NCBI RefSeq assembly: GCF_002075285.3
Contig: NZ_CP021983.2
Location: forward strand, 240,001-272,000
DNA: 32,000 bases
From: Halomicronema hongdechloris C2206
GTDB lineage: Bacteria; Cyanobacteriota; Cyanobacteriia; Phormidesmidales; Phormidesmidaceae
Direction of reading: 5' to 3'
Shown: positions 4,955 to 23,320 of the stretch, one piece after another
Position numbering within the stretch: position 1 is the stretch's first letter
How the letters are laid out: the number at the start of each line of letters is the position of its first letter
The notes under the pieces: model-generated
Seen by the model: only the letters and a program-made list of their open reading frames with translations
Database searches by the model: none
What the model was told of the DNA's origin: nothing
Translations under genes and position numbers: made by a program

Positions 4955-6421
4955 CTAGCTCAGCACCCACTGCACCAGGGTGCGCACACCATAGCCCGTC
5001 GCTCCCGGAGGGTGGTAGGGTCCTTCTTTTTCACTCCACACCGGCCCAGCAATGTCTAAATGGGCCCAGTTGGTGTCTTTGACGAATTGCTTCAAGAACA
5101 GGGCGGCAGTAATGGAGCCGCCGGGACGAGGGCCGGTATTTTTCATGTCGGCCACCACCGATTTCATGCCTTCGAAGTATTTTTCCTCGAGGGGCATGCG
5201 CCAGAGCTTTTCCCCGGCAGTTTCTGCTGCCTGGCTCAACGCCTGAGCCAGATCATCGTAGGGACTGAACAGGCTGCCAATGTCATCTCCTAGGGCGATG
5301 ATACTGGCTCCGGTCAGGGTGGCCAGATCCACCATGGCGTCGAGTCCCAACTTCTCGGCAAAGACCAGGGCATCGGCCAGGGTCAACCGGCCCTCGGCAT
5401 CGGTGTTATTGACTTCGATGGTTTTGCCGTTGGAGGCGGTCAAAATATCTCCTGGGCGCAGGGCATGGCCGCTAATCATGTTCTCGGTGGCGGCACTGAT
5501 GAAGTGCACTTCCACATCTGGCTGCAACTCACCGATGGTCTTGGCGGTGCCAAAGGTGGCGGCGGCACCGCCCATGTCGATCTTCATGGTCTCGATGCCA
5601 CTGCCGGACACCTTCAAATTGAGGCCCCCGGAGTCGAAGGTGAGGCCCTTGCCGATGATGGCCAGCTTCCGGCGCGGCGTGCCGTTGGGGCGATAGGTCA
5701 GGTGGATAAACTTGGGCGGCAGATCTGAGGCTTGCGCCACGCCGAGATAGGCTCCCATGCCTAATTTTTCACAGTCTTCTCGCTCCAGCACCTCTAACTC
5801 CATGCCATAGGTGCTGGCAATCTCGGCGGCGGTTTCGGCCAGCTTGGCCGGGGTGACCACGTTAGGCGGGGCCGAGACCAAATCGCGGGCTAAAATTACC
5901 CCGTGACAAACCGCCCAGGCGGTTTGGATGGCCGCCTCTTGCCCTGGTAGCTCCAGCAAAGACACCTGCTCTAGGGGTTTGCTTTGGGTATCGGATTCGG
6001 ATTTGAAGCGCGTGTCTTCGTAGAGAGCCAGGATGATGCCTTCGGCCATGGCTTGGGCGGCCATGGCTGGGTCAACACTGCCCCAGGGTAAACTCAGCCC
6101 TAGCTGGCCACTCTTCTCGGCCTTGGCCAGACGGGCGGCACTGGCCGCTGCCCGCCGCAGGGACTCTGAGGTCACCGTGTCGGCAGCCCCAAGCCCGACG
6201 AGTCCTAGTTTGCGGACGGTACTGCCCACCCGAGTGCTAGCCGTATCGCCGACTTTCCCCTTGAAGTCCACTTCATCGACGAGTTCTTGGATCAGGCCGC
6301 TCACTCGGCCGTCAAGCTCTGCTAAACGACCCGACAGGGGCAAATCTGCTTCGGTGAGGCCGATGGCTAGACAGTCACCGGACCAGGTTAAACACGATTG
6401 ATCTGAGGCGTAAAACTCCAT
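4955..6421 (-). CDS. pepA: leucyl aminopeptidase (M17)
   Basis: 488-aa ORF with M17 signature [14 protein letters not shown] and [10 protein letters not shown]. Confidence 0.9.
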
Positions 6422-6562
6422 GGTTGTCCTACTAAATTGGTGAGCTGATAGGGCTTAGCATTGCTTCGATTGGATCACAGGACGGTGGCTGGGGCAATGG
6501 TGCCACCCAATCCTGCAAAAGTTTGCTAGAACTCTTATCAGGTTTACTGTATACCGTGTCCC

Positions 6563-6972
6563 GTGTTTCGACAGATCAAGGCTAAGGTCCCTCTGCTAGC
6601 TATGGTAGGTGTCGGTGCCCTGTCTTTGGGCATGGCCATGGCATTGCTGTCATCGTTAGGATGGCGGCGCTGGCGTCCCGATATCCTAGGCCTGCCCTAG
6701 AACAGGTCGCTGAGACCGAGTCCACGGCAGTGCTGACATTGGCTGCACTGGCCCCGCAGCAGCGGTCGGCTCGTCTGCAGGCTATGGCCCAGGCCCCACC
6801 CTCTCTCAACCAATATCGGGCTCGCTACCTGTTGGCGGTGGATTTGGTCGCCCAGGGCAAGGCATTGCAAGCCCTGGAATGGCTGCAGGAGCTAGAGCAA
6901 GGGTATCCGGTGCTGGCTCCCTATGTGCTGCAGACAAGGGCCCAGGACCCAAATGGCGGCCGGTCAATCTGA
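6563..6972 (+). pseudogene. 5' portion of the lytic transglycosylase gene, split over other reading frames
   Basis: Frame 2 from GTG 6563 or ATG 6602 gives a signal-anchor-like peptide (FRQIKAKVPLLAMVGVGALSLGMAMALLSSLGWRRWR) ending at TAG 6698-6700. Frame 1 (6661-6972) gives a TPR/Slt-like segment ...ARYLLAVDLVAQGKALQALEWLQELEQGYPVLAPYVLQTRAQ. The long ORF then resumes in frame 2. Confidence 0.55.
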
Positions 6973-8776
6973 GGCCGCGATCGCAACCTGGCAACAGTTA
7001 CGGCAGACCTATGGGGACGATCCGGCAGCGGCAGCAGCCCTCTACCAGCTGGGGCAGCATGATCAGCGCTACCTAGACCAGCTGTTGCAGCGGTTTCCGG
7101 CCCACCCCCGCAGCGTCGAGGTGGCCCTAGCGCGATTATCAACGGCTTCCGCTCCAGAGCAGATCCGCTCCCTGTTGCTGTTGGTGGCCCGCCATGGGCT
7201 CCATCATGCTGAGGCCGAGGCCGTTCTGAAGCGATTGGTGACCGAGTACGGCGCCTCTCTCCGCCCGGAAGACTGGCAAGCCATTGGCTTTGGCTATTGG
7301 AAAAAAGATATCTATGGCCAGGCGGGGCCTGCCTATGCCAAGGCCCCAGCCACGCCCCAAACCCTCTATCGCGCCGCCCGGGGATTGCAGATCGGGCAGC
7401 GCCGTGACGCTGCGATCGCAACCTACCGTCGCCTGGCCCAGGCCTTCCCTAAAGCACCAGAGACGGCCCAGGGACTCTTGCATCTGGCCACGCTGGTCCC
7501 GGCCCAAGACGCCCTGACCATCCTCGACCAGGTGATTCAACGCTTTCCCCAGCGAGCCGCCGAGGCCCTATCCCGGCGAGCCGACCGTCTGGAAGCATTG
7601 AACAGCCCCACCTCGGCTGCCCAGGCCCGCCAGTCCCTGTTGAGTCAATACCCGGAGGCAGAGGCCACCATCGAGTTGCGCCTCAACCGCGCCCGGGCGG
7701 CTGCCGCCCAGCAAAACTGGCAAGCTGCCATCGACTGGGTCGCCCCTATTTCTCAAGCTGACCTCACCACTGAGGCCGCCGCCGAGGCCATCTTCTGGCA
7801 GGGGAAATGGACCTTAAAAGCGGGCCGGAGTGACCAAGCCCAGCAGCTATTCGAGCAAGTCCTGCAAGCGCACCCCGACTCTTACTTTGCCTGGCGCGCG
7901 GCCGTAGCCCTGGGCTGGAACGTCGGTGACTTCACTACCCTGCGACACCAGCAGCCCTCGGTCACAGCGCCACCCCAGCGGGGGCCTCTCCCAGCCGGGT
8001 CTGCCGCCTTAGAGGAACTCTACCGGCTGGGCCAAGATCGCCTGGCCTGGAACCGCTGGCAAGTAGAGGTCGCCGACCCACAGCAGCTCACGGTCGATGA
8101 GCAGTTCACTGACGGTCTGATGCGGCTGGGCACTGGCGATCACCTCGATGGGATTTACCAACTCACTAGCCTGGCTAACCGAGACGACTCCCAGGCCCGA
8201 GTGCAGCAGTTGCAGCAAGCCCCCGACTACTGGCACGGCCTCTATCCGCTGCTATTTAGCAACTTGATCACCCATTGGTCCCAGCAGCGCCAGCTCAATC
8301 CCCTCCTGGTCACCGCCTTAATTCGGCAAGAATCGCGGTTTGAGCCCCAGATCCGCTCCGTCGCCGGGGCCGTGGGGCTAATGCAGGTGATGCCGGCCAC
8401 CGCCGACTGGATTCGCGGTCAGATTGGCCTCAACGACTATCGCCTCGACCATCCCGAGGACAATGTCAAACTCGGCACCTGGTATCTGGACTACACCCAC
8501 CGAGAGTATGACAATCACTCTTTGTTTGCGGTAGCTAGCTACAATGCCGGTCCCGGCAACGTGGCCCGTTGGCTCCGTCGGGGCGGCTTCCGAGATGCCG
8601 ATGAGTTTGCCGAACAAATTCCCTTCGCCGAAACTAAGGGCTATGTCGAGGCTGTCTTCGGCGGCTATTGGAACTATCTCAGGCTCCATGACCCAGCAAT
8701 AGCCCGTCTGCCAGGGATAAATGCCGTAGCCGACTCCTCGTCTGGGCTAATTTCCCACTACAATACTCACCGTTAG
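6923..8776 (+). CDS. soluble lytic murein transglycosylase (Slt70-like); longest intact frame
   Basis: 617-aa ORF. The C-terminal catalytic domain has QESRFEPQIRSVAGAVGLMQVMPATA and AYNAGPGNV motifs, preceded by a helical repeat N-domain. The true N-terminus appears to lie upstream in other frames. Confidence 0.8.
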   Translation: MCCRQGPRTQMAAGQSEAAIATWQQLRQTYGDDPAAAAALYQLGQHDQRYLDQLLQRFPAHPRSVEVALARLSTASAPEQIRSLLLLVARHGLHHAEAEAVLKRLVTEYGASLRPEDWQAIGFGYWKKDIYGQAGPAYAKAPATPQTLYRAARGLQIGQRRDAAIATYRRLAQAFPKAPETAQGLLHLATLVPAQDALTILDQVIQRFPQRAAEALSRRADRLEALNSPTSAAQARQSLLSQYPEAEATIELRLNRARAAAAQQNWQAAIDWVAPISQADLTTEAAAEAIFWQGKWTLKAGRSDQAQQLFEQVLQAHPDSYFAWRAAVALGWNVGDFTTLRHQQPSVTAPPQRGPLPAGSAALEELYRLGQDRLAWNRWQVEVADPQQLTVDEQFTDGLMRLGTGDHLDGIYQLTSLANRDDSQARVQQLQQAPDYWHGLYPLLFSNLITHWSQQRQLNPLLVTALIRQESRFEPQIRSVAGAVGLMQVMPATADWIRGQIGLNDYRLDHPEDNVKLGTWYLDYTHREYDNHSLFAVASYNAGPGNVARWLRRGGFRDADEFAEQIPFAETKGYVEAVFGGYWNYLRLHDPAIARLPGINAVADSSSGLISHYNTHR

Positions 8777-8812
8777 GGTAATGATGCGCATCCCCGGATT
8801 CAGCGAGGTACT

Positions 8813-9697
8813 GTGGCCAAGTTAGTCCCGGCTCAAGTCGAGCAACTGCGAGAGATTGGTGCCTACCTACGTCAGCTGCGGCAACAACAAGGCCGCACCC
8901 TGGAAGAGGTGGCCACTCAAATTTTTATTCGACCGGCTTTACTACATGCCCTAGAAGACGCCAATGCCGAGCTGTTACCAGAACCCGTCTTTGTGCAGGG
9001 GTTTATTCGGCGCTATGGTGATGCCCTGGGAATCAACGGCATTGAGGTGGCCAGCCAGTTCTCAGTCACCCCAGTCGCCGTATTACCAGACCCTGCGGCG
9101 GCAGAGGCTGACGGTGGCAATGGCATCGTCGATAAGCAAACGCAGCATGGCTTGAAGGTGTTGTCTAAGGCTGATCCCCAACCAACATTGACGCGAACTA
9201 AGCTAGCCTGGCTGGGGGGAGGGATAGTTGCGATCGCAGCCATAGCAGGAATCTGGGGATTGACCAGAGCTGGATGGCAGTGGCCCAGTAATTGGAGCGT
9301 GTCCTTACCCGAGCCGAGTCTTCCCGACCCGTCCTCTGAGACTGCCAGTGAGCCACCGGAGCCAACCTCTCCAGACCCGGCAGACTCAGTCACCATCTCT
9401 CCGGCTGAGGAAACCCCGGCCGAGGACCCCACGGCTGCTCCCGTGACCGTTCAGGTGGAATTAACCGCTCCCTCTTGGATGCGAGTCACCGTGGATGGCG
9501 AAACCATCTTCGAGGGGATCATGGGAAGTGGCGAGCAAGAAACCTGGAGTGGCGACCGTGAAGTGAAGCTAGTGGCCGGCAATGCCGGTGGTATCGAGCT
9601 TTCCCTCAATGGCAGTGAGCCCATGCCCTTAGGCGATAGCGGTGATGTCACTACCCTGACCCTGACGCCCACCACCGATCTCAACAGCCTGCGTTAG
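8813..9697 (+). CDS. RodZ-like HTH protein with C-terminal DUF4115-type domain
   Basis: GTG start. It has an N-terminal HTH (LRQLRQQQGRTLEEVATQIFIRPALLHALE), one TM helix, a Pro/Glu/Ser-rich linker and a C-terminal beta domain (VTVDGETIFEG...WSGDREVKLVAGNAGGIELSLNG). Confidence 0.7.
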   Translation: MAKLVPAQVEQLREIGAYLRQLRQQQGRTLEEVATQIFIRPALLHALEDANAELLPEPVFVQGFIRRYGDALGINGIEVASQFSVTPVAVLPDPAAAEADGGNGIVDKQTQHGLKVLSKADPQPTLTRTKLAWLGGGIVAIAAIAGIWGLTRAGWQWPSNWSVSLPEPSLPDPSSETASEPPEPTSPDPADSVTISPAEETPAEDPTAAPVTVQVELTAPSWMRVTVDGETIFEGIMGSGEQETWSGDREVKLVAGNAGGIELSLNGSEPMPLGDSGDVTTLTLTPTTDLNSLR

Positions 9698-17506: not shown

Positions 17507-18175
17507 ATGCGAATCCTATTGGTTGAAGATGATCATCACCTAGCGGCCTCCTTATCGGAAGCCCTTGAGGCCCAGCGTTATACCGTGGATGTGGCCCATG
17601 ATGGTGATATCGCCTGGCAGCAAATGACCCTGTTGTCCTATGACTTGATGCTGATGGATATTACCCTGCCCCAGGTGGATGGCTTGACCCTGTGTCAACG
17701 GTTGCGATCGCATGGCGTGGTTTCCCCGGTGCTGATGCTGACCGCCCGCGATACCAGCGGCGATAAAGTAGCCGGTCTTGATGCCGGTGCCGATGCCTAC
17801 ATGGTTAAGCCCTTCGACCTGTCCGAGTTGATTGCTCAAATTCGGGCCCTGCTGCGGCGAGGGCAAATGGCCCCACCCACGACTCTGCAGTGGGAACTCC
17901 TGCAGCTTAACCCAACCACCTACGACGTTACCTATCAGGATATCCCCATTCGCCTGACCCCTAAGGAGTTTGCCATTCTAGAACTGCTGCTGCGCCATGG
18001 CCGCCGGGTGCTCAGCCGTCACTTCATCCTGGAATCGATCTGGCAATTAGACGATCCCCCCGGCGAAGAAACCGTGAAAGCCCACCTGAAAGCCCTGCGG
18101 CAGAAGCTGTGTAAAGCAGGGGCCCCTAAGAACTTTATCGAAACCATGCATGGCTTAGGCTATCGCTTGAATTAG
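17507..18175 (+). CDS. OmpR-family response regulator
   Basis: 222-aa ORF. Receiver domain (MRILLVEDD...DLMLMDITLP...MLTAR...KPF) plus a winged-helix trans_reg_C domain (..LTPKEFAILELLLRH...GLGYRL). Confidence 0.9.
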   Translation: MRILLVEDDHHLAASLSEALEAQRYTVDVAHDGDIAWQQMTLLSYDLMLMDITLPQVDGLTLCQRLRSHGVVSPVLMLTARDTSGDKVAGLDAGADAYMVKPFDLSELIAQIRALLRRGQMAPPTTLQWELLQLNPTTYDVTYQDIPIRLTPKEFAILELLLRHGRRVLSRHFILESIWQLDDPPGEETVKAHLKALRQKLCKAGAPKNFIETMHGLGYRLN

Positions 18176-18342
18176 GAGATGGGCATCTTGATAATCCGTC
18201 TGCTTGGCCAAGTTACACCACCCTTCTGAGCAACACTGATCTCCAAGTGCCTTTGAAACTACTTTAAAGAAAGTATCAACTTAACCTATGTGCTTATAGC
18301 GTGGACTAGCTTAGGGAAATGTGATCTCAAACGCAGTGAAAA

Positions 18343-19722
18343 ATGTCTGATCTGCAAGATACTGCCTTACAGCTACTCCGTACTGCACTAGATAATCCAA
18401 CAGCTACATTTCGTGACAATCAATGGGAAGCAATTGAACAATTGTTGAATCCAGGGACACGCTTGTTAATGGTGCAACGAACTGGATGGGGAAAGAGTTT
18501 AATATATTTCTTAACTACACGTCTCTTACGCAATCGGGGAATGGGGCCAACTCTACTGATATCACCCCTCTTGGCTTTAATGAGAAATCAGATTGCTGCT
18601 GCTGAACGCATTGGACTTCAAGCTGTAACCATTAACTCTACCAATCAGAAAACATGGAGGGATATCCAAGAGAAGTTGCTGGCTGGGCAAGCTGATATAC
18701 TACTAATTTCGCCAGAACGCCTAGCAAATGAAGAATTTCAGGAAGAGATTCTATTGCCGCTGTCTACACAAAATGGCTTATCAGTTTCCCAACTTGAAGG
18801 AAAATTAAATCTTTCAAGAGGAAAAATCGAAAAAGTCTTAACCCTATTATCGGTAGAAGCCCCTTCTCCAGTCACAAAAATTAATGGTCACTGGCATTCT
18901 ACGCCTATTAACTATGAGATAGATCGAGAAAAGGTAGCCAAGCTAACTGAAATCAGAAAACGTGAACAAGCTCGGATGCTAAATTATATCAATACATATA
19001 ATTGCTTGATATTGTTTTTGGCTGAGGAACTAGATGACAATTCTACAACAGAATGCGGACGCTGCGCTGTATGCTTAGATCAGTCTCTAATTCCAGAAAC
19101 CTATTCTCTAAAAAAGGCTCAAGATGCCATATCTTTTCTACGTAGAACCGATCATACCATTACCCCACGAAAGCGTTGGCCTGCAGGTAGCTTTATTTCT
19201 TATTCATGGAGTGGAAATATTCCAATTACGTTACAAGCTGAGACCGGTCTAGCCTTATCACTCTGGGGAGATGCGGGTTGGGGAAGTTTAGTGAAGCAAG
19301 GAAAATATCAAGATAAATGCTTCAATGATCAATTAGTAGATGCTGTAAGTGAATTAATCCAATGCTGGAAGCCTGATCCGTTTCCGACATGGATAACTTG
19401 TGTACCTTCGTTAACTCGTCCTGAATTAGTTCCTAACTTTTCAGAACGTTTAGCCCGTAAGTTAAATCTGCCCTTTATATCTTGTGTCAGAAAAATAAGA
19501 CGTAATCATCCACAAAAAGATATGCAAAATAGTGTTAAACAAGCTCAAAACTTAGATGGGGTATTTGAAATTACTAGCTGGCAAGGAATAAAAGGCCCTG
19601 TGTTCTTGGTTGACGACATGGTAGATTCCCGCTGGACATTTACAGTAGTTACCGCTTTATTACATCAATCAGGCAGTGGTAGAGTCTTTCCATTAGCTCT
19701 AGCCCTCAACTCGCTTAGTTAG
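18343..19722 (+). CDS. RecQ-like helicase N-lobe fragment / winged-helix / Cys-cluster / ComF-type phosphoribosyltransferase fusion protein
   Basis: 459-aa ORF. The N-terminus aligns by eye with RecQ motifs 0/I/Ia/Ib (FRDNQWEAI, RTGWGKSL, LLISPLLALMRNQ, LISPERL). A RecQ-like Zn region follows (ECGRCAVC). The C-terminus is a ComF/PRTase fold (ITCVPS..., PVFLVDDMVDSRWT). No DExH box or motif VI was found. Confidence 0.75.
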   Translation: MSDLQDTALQLLRTALDNPTATFRDNQWEAIEQLLNPGTRLLMVQRTGWGKSLIYFLTTRLLRNRGMGPTLLISPLLALMRNQIAAAERIGLQAVTINSTNQKTWRDIQEKLLAGQADILLISPERLANEEFQEEILLPLSTQNGLSVSQLEGKLNLSRGKIEKVLTLLSVEAPSPVTKINGHWHSTPINYEIDREKVAKLTEIRKREQARMLNYINTYNCLILFLAEELDDNSTTECGRCAVCLDQSLIPETYSLKKAQDAISFLRRTDHTITPRKRWPAGSFISYSWSGNIPITLQAETGLALSLWGDAGWGSLVKQGKYQDKCFNDQLVDAVSELIQCWKPDPFPTWITCVPSLTRPELVPNFSERLARKLNLPFISCVRKIRRNHPQKDMQNSVKQAQNLDGVFEITSWQGIKGPVFLVDDMVDSRWTFTVVTALLHQSGSGRVFPLALALNSLS

Positions 19723-19731
19723 AGAGAATAG

Positions 19732-21039
19732 ATGGCAATACTGACACACATATTACAACCTGACACCCAGGCTATCTTGCTTCTATGCGCGGGGTTCGGT
19801 CAGTCGCGTCAAGTAGAGCCAAAGCCCTTGAGCCTCAGTGAGTATAACTCTCTGGCCCAAAAACTCCAACAGCAGCATTTACGTCCTGCCGATTTACTAT
19901 CCCCAGACGGACAAAGTTGGATTCAAAGCGAAGTTAATGGAAGCCTTAGTCCTCAAAGGATCGTCCATCTGTTAGAACGAGGGGCTATGTTGGCGGTTGC
20001 TGTTGAGAACTGGACTAGCAAGGGTTTGTGGATCTTAAGCCGTAGTGATGAGACCTATCCACAGCGACTTAAGCGTAAACTAAAACACTTCTCTCCTCCA
20101 ATTCTATATGGGGTAGGAAATCTGGCTTTACTATCAAAAGGGGGTTTAGCCGTGGTTGGTTCCCGAAGCATTGATGATGAGGGTCTTGGCTATACCCAAA
20201 GAATAGCTGAAAAGTGTGCTGAGCAAGGTATCCAAATCGTATCAGGTGGAGCAAGAGGTGTTGACCAAACCGCTATGCTAGCGTCTATTAACGCTGGAGG
20301 GACATCAATAGGGGTCTTGGCAGATAGTTTGATTAAAGCAGTTGTATCAACAAAGTATCGTGAAGGACTTCGCCAAGGACGGGTTGCTCTAGTCTCATCC
20401 TATGATCCCTCCGCTGGATTTAATGCTGGTAATGCAATGAACCGAAATAAGTATGTTTATGCATTAGCTGATCATGCTCTTGTCGTAAACTCTTCTTATG
20501 AAAAAGGTGGAACTTGGGCCGGAGCTAAGGAAGAATTAAAGAGAGAAAGCCATATCCCTGTTTGGGTTCGGCTAGAAGAAGACGTACCGCAAGGGAATCA
20601 TCAATTGGTTCAGCTAGGTGCTATACCCTTTCCGATAGAGCCTTGGAATCGTAACATATTAAACTTGCTAGAAGAAGCTAAACAACTTCATCGAGACAAA
20701 GCTCAAAAAAATACTTCAGAACAATTAGAGCTAAGCGAAATAAATAATCAAAAAGAACAACTGAGTAATATTGATATTCAGAAAAAAGAGCAACTTAAAA
20801 AATTTCCAAAAAATGCATATGAAGCAATTCTACCCTTACTTCTTTATCATTTAAGTGAACCTAAAAAAGATAAAGAAGTTGCTGAATTACTAGATGTTGC
20901 CATAGGCCAAGCAAGACTTTGGTTAAAGAAGGCTGTGCAGGAGGATCTTGTTAAAAAGGAGAAATCGAGTTATGCATTGAATCAAAATAATAGTCAATTA
21001 CAATTGTTGAAATTTAATTCAGTCTCTGCCGACATATAG
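19732..21039 (+). CDS. DprA/Smf-family (SLOG/Rossmann) DNA-processing protein homologue with a C-terminal winged-helix extension
   Basis: 435-aa ORF, 9 nt after the upstream stop. The core GGLAVVGSRSIDDEGLGYTQRIAEKCAEQGIQIVSGGARGVDQTAMLASINAGGTSIGVLADSL is the DprA signature. A K/E/Q-rich linker and a wHTH-like tail follow. Confidence 0.85.
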   Translation: MAILTHILQPDTQAILLLCAGFGQSRQVEPKPLSLSEYNSLAQKLQQQHLRPADLLSPDGQSWIQSEVNGSLSPQRIVHLLERGAMLAVAVENWTSKGLWILSRSDETYPQRLKRKLKHFSPPILYGVGNLALLSKGGLAVVGSRSIDDEGLGYTQRIAEKCAEQGIQIVSGGARGVDQTAMLASINAGGTSIGVLADSLIKAVVSTKYREGLRQGRVALVSSYDPSAGFNAGNAMNRNKYVYALADHALVVNSSYEKGGTWAGAKEELKRESHIPVWVRLEEDVPQGNHQLVQLGAIPFPIEPWNRNILNLLEEAKQLHRDKAQKNTSEQLELSEINNQKEQLSNIDIQKKEQLKKFPKNAYEAILPLLLYHLSEPKKDKEVAELLDVAIGQARLWLKKAVQEDLVKKEKSSYALNQNNSQLQLLKFNSVSADI

Positions 21040-21079
21040 TGTGGAGCTCTGGAGAATGCCTAACGGGCGTATTTAGTAG

Positions 21080-21478: not shown

Positions 21479-23320
21479 CTACTCTATTTTGGGCAGCATC
21501 ACTGTGATGCAAGTCCCCCTCCCGGGCTGGCTGTGCACTGTCAAACACCCGTCCTGCAACTCAACACAGGTTTTCACCACCGCTAAACCTAGGCCCACTC
21601 CCGGCACCGATCCCACATTGGCCCCCCGGTAGAAGGCCTTAAATAGATTTTGCTGCGCTGTCAGGGGAATACCAATGCCTTGGTCAATGACTTGGAATTC
21701 CAGAATATCTGACTTGGCAGTCACAACCAACCGAATCAGACTGTCAGCAGCGGAGTATTTCACAGCATTGGAGAGCAAGTTGACCAAAATTGAGTGCAGC
21801 AGCTTCTTGTCCAAGTAGATCTTGGTATGGATAGCGTTACCCGACAAACTGAGCCGTTGATCTACCTGAGGCTGAATCTGGTCAAACACCTGACGACAAA
21901 AGGGGTCCAGCTCCACAATTTCTGGATTGACCTGCAGCTTACCGGCCTCAGCCCGGGTCAGGGTCAAAATATCATCCACTAACTGCCCCATGCGTCGAGC
22001 GGCTGCCTGAATGCGGTCAACCGTATTCATCTGTTGCTGAGGCGTGAGGGCATCACGATTAGCACTTAAGGATTGGGCGGAGATACTAATCACACTTAGG
22101 GGAGTGCGCAATTCGTGAGAGGCCATGGAAAACAAGCGTAACTTGAGATTACTCAGTTCTCGGGTACGCTCCAGTTCCGACTGCCAGCGAGACAAGTAAA
22201 TCAGCAAAATCGCCGTCATCAGTAAGCCGATCAGCACCGTGGCCAAGGCCGCCCAAGGGGGAGGGGAATAGGAGGGGGGTAGAAACAACAGGTGCCACTG
22301 CCGTTGCCCTACAGCTAGAGTTTGACTGCACTCTAAAGGCGTTGGACAGAGGGAGGTAGAGCGGAGCCAGCCAGACGATTTCCCTTCCGGCTCTGACCAT
22401 TTCCTAGCCTCATCCCCATCTGGCAATACTGTCTGGGTATCTCCGTCGTAAAACCCCAATAGCTTTTCGTCAGCCCTGGCGGTCTGATCCAAGATCCAGA
22501 AATCGATCTCGTGGTCCAAATCAGAGAGGGACTCTTCCACCACATCCGCCACCCGAAACACTCCCAGAATGTAGCCCTTCAGCTGTTGTCGTCGGGCTCT
22601 AGGGGTGGTGGCCGGCTGGTGATAAATGGGCAGAAATACCAAAAAGCTGTACTGGTTGTCTGCGGTTTCTTGCACCAGTTGAATACGGCCAGTGGCGGCT
22701 AGGGCGCCTGTGTCTCTGGCCTGCTCTAGGGCGATGCGACGGGTGTCGTCGGAGGCCAGATCGTAGCCCAGCGCCACTTCATTGGTTTGCCAGGGCTCTA
22801 GGAAGGTGACGGGGACATAGCTGCTGCGCTCTGCCGCCGGACGCAAAATCCCCGTAGCAGAGCGCTCGGTAATGCCTAGCTGCGATGGCCCCGAGGGGCC
22901 GGTCTGCGACCATCGCTCCGTCAGGGTTTGCAGCCACGCTTCATAGGCCGCGCGATCGCCATGGAGCACTAACGGCGCCCATTCCAGGGCCTGAATGCCG
23001 GGATAGGTCTGCACCGCCCGCTGCACGAATCGACTAAAGGCTTCGTCGGTGATGTCATTGGCATTGGCGGCATAAAAATCGCCGATAGCCAGCAACAACT
23101 CGTTATAGCGATTGGTAGTGCGCTGTAAGGCCGTGGTCAGGTTGCCGATTTGCCGTTGAAACTCTCCCTGCCGAGACAACTGTTCCCAACGACTGACCCA
23201 TGTCGTCGCCATCATGGTGGGTTCCAAACCCAAAGCCAAGATGAATCCGGCAGGGAAATAGCGGTGCAGGGAAGGCATTGGAGGCCAGTAAGAAATCCAA
23301 TTAAGAATGCCTATTGTCAC
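21479..23320 (-). CDS. sensor histidine kinase with periplasmic CHASE domain
   Basis: 613-aa ORF. It has CHASE-like sequence (..YPGIQALEWAPLV..., SYVPVTFLEPWQTNEVALGYDLASDDTRRIALEQARDTG), a TM helix, the HisKA H-box (SMASHELRTPL) and an HATPase_c domain (N, G1, G2 boxes). The start could be the internal MPSLHRY. Confidence 0.85.
   Translation of the reverse strand: MTIGILNWISYWPPMPSLHRYFPAGFILALGLEPTMMATTWVSRWEQLSRQGEFQRQIGNLTTALQRTTNRYNELLLAIGDFYAANANDITDEAFSRFVQRAVQTYPGIQALEWAPLVLHGDRAAYEAWLQTLTERWSQTGPSGPSQLGITERSATGILRPAAERSSYVPVTFLEPWQTNEVALGYDLASDDTRRIALEQARDTGALAATGRIQLVQETADNQYSFLVFLPIYHQPATTPRARRQQLKGYILGVFRVADVVEESLSDLDHEIDFWILDQTARADEKLLGFYDGDTQTVLPDGDEARKWSEPEGKSSGWLRSTSLCPTPLECSQTLAVGQRQWHLLFLPPSYSPPPWAALATVLIGLLMTAILLIYLSRWQSELERTRELSNLKLRLFSMASHELRTPLSVISISAQSLSANRDALTPQQQMNTVDRIQAAARRMGQLVDDILTLTRAEAGKLQVNPEIVELDPFCRQVFDQIQPQVDQRLSLSGNAIHTKIYLDKKLLHSILVNLLSNAVKYSAADSLIRLVVTAKSDILEFQVIDQGIGIPLTAQQNLFKAFYRGANVGSVPGVGLGLAVVKTCVELQDGCLTVHSQPGRGTCITVMLPKIE

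Follow-up and report, generated by a model that had tools for sequence, protein, structure and literature searches.

An in-frame deletion removes helicase motifs II–VI from the psyrT gene of a PsyrTA (RqlHI) cassette in Halomicronema hongdechloris C2206

In the genome of Halomicronema hongdechloris C2206, a low-GC (guanine-plus-cytosine) cassette of approximately 2.9 kb consists of two genes, psyrT and psyrA. The cassette lies on the forward strand of a 32,000-nucleotide (nt) stretch of contig NZ_CP021983.2 (positions 240,001–272,000), hereafter called the window, in which all positions below are counted. PsyrTA, also known as RqlHI, is a phage-defense toxin–antitoxin system, whose toxin is a fusion of a RecQ-like helicase and a phosphoribosyltransferase (PRTase) and whose antitoxin is DprA-like (bioRxiv 10.1101/2022.05.11.491447; PMC4670107; PMC3378886). 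We report that the psyrT allele of this cassette (18343–19722) has an in-frame internal deletion of helicase motifs II–VI, and that the psyrA gene directly downstream (19732–21039) is intact. The truncated protein derives from a known system by loss of its helicase, and is most likely an early decay product rather than a new protein design.

Results

The 459-aa PsyrT protein lacks the second half of the helicase core

The 459-amino acid (aa) psyrT product (XM38_002400, annotated as “recQ”) is identical to NCBI ASC69313.1 / WP_080810798.1 of H. hongdechloris C2206. Alignment with eight full-length homologues showed a single 236-column gap, located between T142 and Q143 in the context ...EEILLPLST(142) | (143)QNGLSVSQLE..., and the block missing here holds VVDEAHC (motif II), TATA (motif III) and QQVGRAGR (motif VI). 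A preliminary description of this DNA, made from the letters alone, had reported that the motifs from II to VI were missing between the SPERL peptide and the zinc cluster, and that no DExH, motif III or QxxGRxGR occurred in the 459 aa. The alignment bears this out, as do regular-expression searches of the 459 aa for DExH, DExD and QxxGRxGR, which returned no match. The interval that had been put at about 115 residues contains 110 (L127 of SPERL to C238), versus 346 in the full-length homologue P0005, and the extra 150–250 aa that longer homologues were expected to carry near residue 140 are the 236 aa found after T142. Pfam DEAD covered residues 25–129 alone (profile positions 2–107 of 167) and Pfam Helicase_C gave no match in the protein; the complete two-lobe superfamily 2 ATPase core with motifs I–VI that typifies the family was thus not detected by the profile comparison that the same description had proposed.

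The retained parts, all encoded on the forward strand, follow the PsyrT layout. Residues 1–142 (18343–18768) are a remnant of RecQ-like RecA lobe 1 with motifs 0, I, Ia and Ib, as delimited by Pfam DEAD, TIGR01389 (residues 21–136) and Foldseek, and include the Walker A sequence GWGKS at residues 48–52 (18484–18498). Residues 143–194 (18769–18924) align to the RqlH-specific linker winged helix-turn-helix of full-length members, which in the AlphaFold2 comparison with P0005 is present here without its own first helix. The RecQ-type tetracysteine zinc module (C221, C238, C241 and C244; 18925–19077) was recognized from alignments and from a sub-threshold Pfam RecQ_Zn_bind match at residues 200–245 (E 0.0035, 18.5 bits, under the 25-bit cut-off), its four cysteines being invariant or nearly so in both alignments (A1 and A2). 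The ComF-like PRTase region (19078–19719) is collinear with full-length homologues to its end; Pfam Pribosyltran matched it weakly (residues 366–444, E 0.16). Within this region, the phosphoribosyl pyrophosphate (PRPP)-type acidic loop VFLVDDMVDSRWT (residues 420–432, 19600–19638) falls in nearly invariant alignment columns, with D424, D425, S429, W431 and T432 nearly invariant across the alignments. The corresponding RqlH residue, D663, is needed for toxicity (PMC4670107).

PADLOC assigned 18343–19722 to PsyrT (PDLC03928; E 3.5e-156, 519 bits) in two stretches that cover both the N- and the C-terminal parts, with residues 135–457 corresponding to profile positions 369–685 of 689. The 435-aa product of the same-strand gene downstream (XM38_002410, annotated as “dprA_1”; both locus tags are those of the published proteome table) matched PADLOC PsyrA at E 1.9e-139 (residues 8–414 to profile positions 3–394 of 398) and Pfam DNA_processg_A at E 6.7e-39; the ShosA profile also matched it (E 5.3e-31). 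Other families fitted the 459-aa protein poorly. The scores were 96.5 bits against a cut-off of 640.2 for TIGR01389 (RecQ), 69.3 against 1015 for NF008279, 12.5 against 233.55 for TIGR00201 (ComF/ComFC) and 25.8 against 550 for NF041063 (DpdF); the PADLOC DpdF matches were partial and far weaker than the PsyrT match; no HRDC domain was matched in the protein; and the PADLOC ShosT profile matched residues 348–453 alone (E 0.048), the N-terminus being RecQ-like and not that of a ShosT. These results identify the pair as PsyrTA, alias RqlHI, an assignment that the preliminary description had made neither for the toxin gene nor for the adjoining DprA-like antitoxin gene.

Homology to the characterized systems (PsyrT–PsyrA of P. 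syringae, RqlH–RqlI of E. coli F11, RqlH of M. smegmatis) is unambiguous and extends to gene order, linker winged helix, tetracysteine module, ComF-like PRTase and DprA-like partner. Unlike those proteins, the one encoded in the window lacks the residues equivalent to 143–378, and with them motifs II–VI, one half of lobe 1 and the entire lobe 2. In M. smegmatis RqlH (MSMEG_5935), K49A or D148A singly abolishes ATPase activity (PMC3378886), and for this reason we infer from the missing motifs that the helicase/ATPase activity that defines the family cannot be present in the truncated protein. With canonical RecQ (E. coli, D. radiodurans) it shares motifs 0, I, Ia and Ib and the zinc-binding module, whereas it has neither an HRDC domain nor a second RecA lobe and ends in a PRTase.

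The AlphaFold2 models of the truncated protein (predicted local distance difference test score 93, predicted template modeling score 0.76) and of P0005 (92 and 0.88, respectively) locate the loss in the fold. The predicted lobe-1 strands E146–149 (motif II), E181–186 (motif III) and E206–209 of P0005 are lost, together with the whole of lobe 2 (E217 to E346), helix 350–359 and helix 365–376, with which the linker winged helix begins. Where lobe 1 of the full-length model has seven predicted strands, the remnant has three; no strand was assigned to the P-loop segment, which is E40–44 in P0005. Foldseek aligned RecQ cores over approximately 132–141 columns only (root-mean-square deviation 2.2–2.6 Å) and matched H. 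pylori ComF (7p0h) to the C-terminal part; a second RecA lobe, for which a structure prediction had been suggested at the outset, appeared neither in the model and its comparison with P0005 nor among the Foldseek matches. The linker elements H148–154, H159–170, E177–180 and E183–186 correspond to H384–390, H395–406, E413–416 and E419–422 of P0005. Along the chain, the lobe-1 helix at residues 130–141 (EEFQEEILLPLS) now stands where the winged helix has lost HIQEILTTLDQ, and its distance from the helix that follows is almost unchanged; judging from a model of a kind that is insensitive to destabilizing truncations, this substitution might aid folding of the product.

The deletion junction is in frame and carries short microhomology

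The two closest DNA relatives of the cassette, the metagenomic loci L001 and L002, are collinear with it on both sides of the junction. Using blastn, window positions 18184–18779 matched L001 133–728 (86% identity) and positions 18770–21064 matched L001 1427–3721 (84% identity). The two matches overlap at 18770–18779 and their offset (1427 − 719) is 708 bp, or 236 codons, which places the T142|Q143 junction at 18766–18779 and confirms the earlier proposal of an in-frame internal deletion in a longer RecQ–PRTase protein. In-register microhomology at the junction amounts to approximately 3–5 nt (TGG in the relatives, AATGG in the window), which is typical of illegitimate recombination. A split gene was also considered and rejected, because the deleted 236 aa are not encoded elsewhere in the window (tblastn, no match better than E 0.5).

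It is highly improbable that the gap reflects a collapsed assembly or an erroneous consensus in the published genome. The hybrid MIRA/Gap5 assembly involved manual joining, and some of the PacBio reads were chimeric (PMC6416890); an exact look-up of both proteins in the contig index found no independent assembly of the strain. Against an artifact stand the coverage of 72x from three technologies (454, Solexa and PacBio; PMC6416890) and a junction that preserves the reading frame exactly and is flanked on either side by conserved coding sequence; moreover, the flanks share only about 3–5 nt, so there is nothing on which an assembly could collapse.

The deletion is private, and other psyrT deletions are scattered through the family

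Full-length relatives are 695–730 aa long, and outside the gap the truncated protein reaches 82% identity to cyanobacterial members. The 119 next-best protein clusters (57–79% identity in the aligned parts; 631–738 aa, nearly all 695–713 aa) all carry Helicase_C, and none shares the deletion. Since the truncated protein is itself a singleton cluster, we regard it as a private allele and not as a conserved ATPase-dead architecture. The second of the two readings offered in the preliminary description, a stable ATPase-dead protein that keeps its N-lobe as a scaffold, is therefore not supported for this locus, and a scaffold is in any case too generous a term for a truncated lobe in which three of seven strands remain and the P-loop strand is unassigned.

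We next considered the loci of relatives. A scan of genome contigs with an alignment yielded them, the source genome not being among those recovered (a scan with a single protein gave none), and 82 related loci, comprising 80 from species-representative genomes and the two metagenomic ones, were probed with a full-length protein. In 71 loci the gene was uninterrupted and full length, seven had frame changes and two were stumps. An internal deletion was present in one locus, which is among the seven with frame changes (L010, positions 5457–9442, in the Microcoleaceae metagenome-assembled genome (MAG) MO_207.B10). This is an independent deletion of the helicase core, with the junction ...ENILLP|DEEITDYF and a different right breakpoint. 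Besides the deletion, it has a frameshift near 6520–6536 and a stop at 6832, which make it a clear pseudogene; approximately 950 bp separate it from an intact, longer psyrA (550 aa). One stump, in a Nostocaceae MAG (L077, 5989–6480), encodes PsyrT only up to about residue 147, immediately ahead of motif II, with neither the PRTase part nor psyrA downstream.

A search of 1.84 billion representative proteins, complemented by a second search seeded with a short form, returned at least 55 PsyrT proteins with 58 in-frame internal deletions (P0126, P0175, P0211, P0271–P0385 and others, mapped onto P0005). Their left breakpoints range from residue 30 to ~430 and their right breakpoints from 187 to ~660, and all six of the 90% identity clusters that were looked up were singletons. 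This sample is biased by the queries used, towards in-frame events, and the in-frame character is largely a matter of ascertainment because the searches sought proteins holding both ends. A recurrent left breakpoint just upstream of DEAH, seen in the window, L010, L077, P0175 and P0261, was dropped as a hotspot because the 58 mapped deletions are spread over residues 30 to ~430 with modest peaks only.

The abundance of short forms is what might recommend a conserved, evolutionarily stable ATPase-dead RecQ–PRTase subfamily. Such a subfamily is very improbable, since the breakpoints of these forms differ from one another and from that in the window, the deletion is absent from all of the closest relatives, and even proteins that are 75–78% identical (P0322, P0365 and P0380) each have a different deletion.

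Four deletion alleles (207, 441, 428 and 176 aa; L083, L084, L085 and L086–L089) were looked up at their loci, and all four directly precede an intact psyrA, which they overlap by 4 nt or abut. The 176-aa form (P0353) recurs unchanged on at least eight contigs from several samples, so it exists as a genuine allele of that population and is no assembly artifact. Some of the short forms, P0353 and P0301 among them, also lack the first PRTase strand, so that the toxin need not be active where psyrA is intact. At 57% identity to each other, P0301 and P0353 share the junction ...SPERLA|.... The ERLA peptide is part of the SPERLA motif of lobe 1 and also of FSERLA in the PRTase part, a repeat that may serve as microhomology for recurrent deletion. 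The short form P0261 ends in ...LIHISEPTRR..., which resembles a translated sequencing adapter; at least some “deletion variants” in the databases may come from poor assemblies. As a whole, the scattered in-frame deletions of psyrT may reflect either recurrent decay or recurrent selection.

The cassette is a low-GC insertion among housekeeping genes

Homology to L001 and GC contrast delimit the cassette at 18184–21064. The homology begins 9 nt past the stop codon of an OmpR-type response regulator gene (17507–18175) and stops 25 nt past that of psyrA; a CHASE histidine kinase gene follows on the reverse strand (21479–23320). The GC content is 41.1% in the cassette versus 56.5% in the remainder of the window and changes sharply at the edges, and the relatives reside in DNA of 39–44% GC, indicating that the cassette arrived horizontally and has so far not been ameliorated. 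A full-length psyrTA pair is carried by a Nostoc plasmid. The surroundings are housekeeping genes (LexA, SmpB, ABC transporter) and not a defense island. No tRNA gene or Rfam family was found in the window, no direct repeat of at least 7 nt is common to both cassette edges, and no integrase was seen among the scanned neighboring genes. Counts from a promoter and terminator scan were no better than those for shuffled sequence. The approximately 160 nt 5′ of psyrT (18184–18342) are ~86% identical to L001 133–291 and show no such likeness to L002; in L001 the gene call had taken this part for an N-terminal extension of the protein (P0003, 730 aa). More probably it is non-coding, being a conserved 5′ region or the promoter of the cassette.

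Discussion

Our preferred reading, to which we assign a probability of about 0.6, is that the protein is detoxified by losing its entire DNA-engaging motor, and that decay of the cassette has only begun. In this scenario, H. hongdechloris would have acquired a PsyrTA/RqlHI cassette horizontally, and one illegitimate-recombination event at very short microhomology would then have removed the 708 bp. The product retains the P-loop part of lobe 1, the linker winged helix for the most part, the zinc module, and the PRTase region in full; with motif II (DEAH), motif III, the second RecA lobe and motif VI gone, it would neither hydrolyze ATP nor translocate on DNA, and it would persist as a detoxified, non-defensive remnant beside an antitoxin gene that is still intact. 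Toxicity of E. coli RqlH needs the PRTase and is abolished by D663A, and the PRTase segment 509–690 alone is not toxic (PMC4670107), which is why we consider detoxification the most likely outcome of the truncation. Decay is also a recurrent fate in the family, as illustrated by the L010 pseudogene, the L077 stump and the deletion proteins from the database search. The best reading of the deletion itself is that it arose in this lineage only, and recently when measured against the divergence from intact relatives. A natural precedent is found in Shigella sonnei 53G, where an insertion sequence parts the helicase of rqlH from the PRTase, which the authors regarded as a way of modulating RqlH toxicity (PMC4670107). 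Both are natural lesions that uncouple helicase from PRTase; unlike that gene-splitting insertion, the deletion described here is clean and in frame and leaves one polypeptide.

Several observations weigh against decay and detoxification. The PRTase motif and psyrA are both intact, and neither psyrA nor the rest of psyrT contains a frameshift or a stop. When substitutions were assigned to branches by three-taxon parsimony (window, L001 and L002), the ratio of nonsynonymous to synonymous substitution rates (dN/dS) on the window branch was 0.16 for psyrA and 0.21 for psyrT, within which the lobe-1 remnant gave 0.26 and the remainder 0.19; these values are not distinguishable from the 0.13–0.23 of intact relatives (Fisher tests not significant). 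In the 177 columns that at least 97% of the 119 relatives conserve, the truncated protein has five private changes (G26N, V54I, K167T, M223I and Q399K); the mean per relative is 1.6, and 8 of the 119 reach or exceed five. Nor does the missing ATPase activity by itself prove detoxification, because helicase-dead RqlH point mutants are still toxic in a PRTase-dependent manner (PMC4670107), and the protein retains the equivalent of residues 379–700 plus the lobe-1 stump, far beyond the non-toxic segment 509–690.

Relaxed selection was therefore rejected as a signature of decay, neither the dN/dS nor the conserved-column test being significant. A rough binomial bound on the counts of nonsynonymous and synonymous changes places dN/dS below ~0.37; if the gene has evolved neutrally since the deletion, the neutral period would then occupy at most about one quarter of the terminal branch. 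The lack of further lesions and a dN/dS in the range of intact relatives fit a recent deletion as well as a product that remains under constraint. The “decaying system” of the preliminary description accordingly stands as plausible and not as demonstrated, given undamaged flanking sequence and a dN/dS of ~0.2.

Considering that the C-terminal part is so well preserved, the truncated protein could instead be a working PRTase toxin checked by PsyrA, that is, a helicase-less minimal module like ShosTA, in which the deletion was neutral or adaptive and the antitoxin was kept through addiction. We judge this unlikely, though it is the strongest rival. It would account for the intact PRPP-type loop and for the integrity of every conserved C-terminal position, for a psyrA under purifying selection, and for the position of all four looked-up deletion alleles, including the recurrent P0353, ahead of an intact psyrA. 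It also agrees with the toxicity of helicase-dead RqlH and with the binding of RqlI to RqlH's PRTase domain (PMC4670107). For ShosT, toxicity depends on the PRTase, the other domain making a marginal contribution. The likeness to ShosTA is one of function, a PRTase-bearing protein beside a DprA-like one: the N-terminal domain of ShosT is a pyrophosphatase-like hydrolase and not a RecQ remnant, which rules out ShosT as a derivative of such a PsyrT remnant, and RqlH binds RqlI, whereas ShosT does not bind ShosA. A working toxin is harder to reconcile with the non-toxicity of RqlH 509–690, with the singleton status of the looked-up clusters and the lack of any diverged clade sharing a deletion, and with alleles such as P0353 and P0301, whose PRTase lacks its first strand. 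In the published tandem mass tag (TMT) proteome (PMC6416890, supplementary file 3), one peptide was assigned to PsyrA, which agrees with such a module and is weak evidence that the antitoxin is expressed in H. hongdechloris, and none to the truncated PsyrT; the latter absence counts for little because 1816 of 5273 proteins were detected.

The close spacing of the two genes suggests another possibility, that the remnant ORF (open reading frame) is kept open mainly to sustain translation of psyrA, PsyrA having a toxin-independent, DprA-like function of its own related to single-stranded DNA or RecA. In relatives and deletion alleles one gene meets the other directly or shares 4 nt with it, the spacer here being 9 nt, the broken-PRTase alleles are still in frame ahead of an intact psyrA, and Russell and Mulvey, noting that rqlH and rqlI orthologs are not always paired, suggested functions of RqlI independent of RqlH (PMC4670107). 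We nevertheless consider this improbable, since out-of-frame deletions are invisible to a protein search that demands both ends, and the 82 loci, which are free of that bias, show mostly frame changes or stumps.

The early-decay reading remains the one we favor. The practical value of the allele lies mostly in correcting the annotation. As a natural construct (Δ143–378), it bears on the role of the helicase in PRTase-dependent toxicity, in neutralization by a DprA-like protein and in phage sensing. It is distinctly doubtful that in-frame helicase loss is a recurrent, selected route to minimal modules of a PRTase (or a leader ORF) and a DprA-like protein, with this allele still encoding a PsyrA-controlled toxin; if that were true, the allele would be a natural separation-of-function mutant, and the helicase would be dispensable for both toxicity and neutralization. 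For the family, the many independent in-frame deletions of psyrT, together with the intact psyrA in the loci that were checked, hint that the helicase is lost more readily than the antitoxin.

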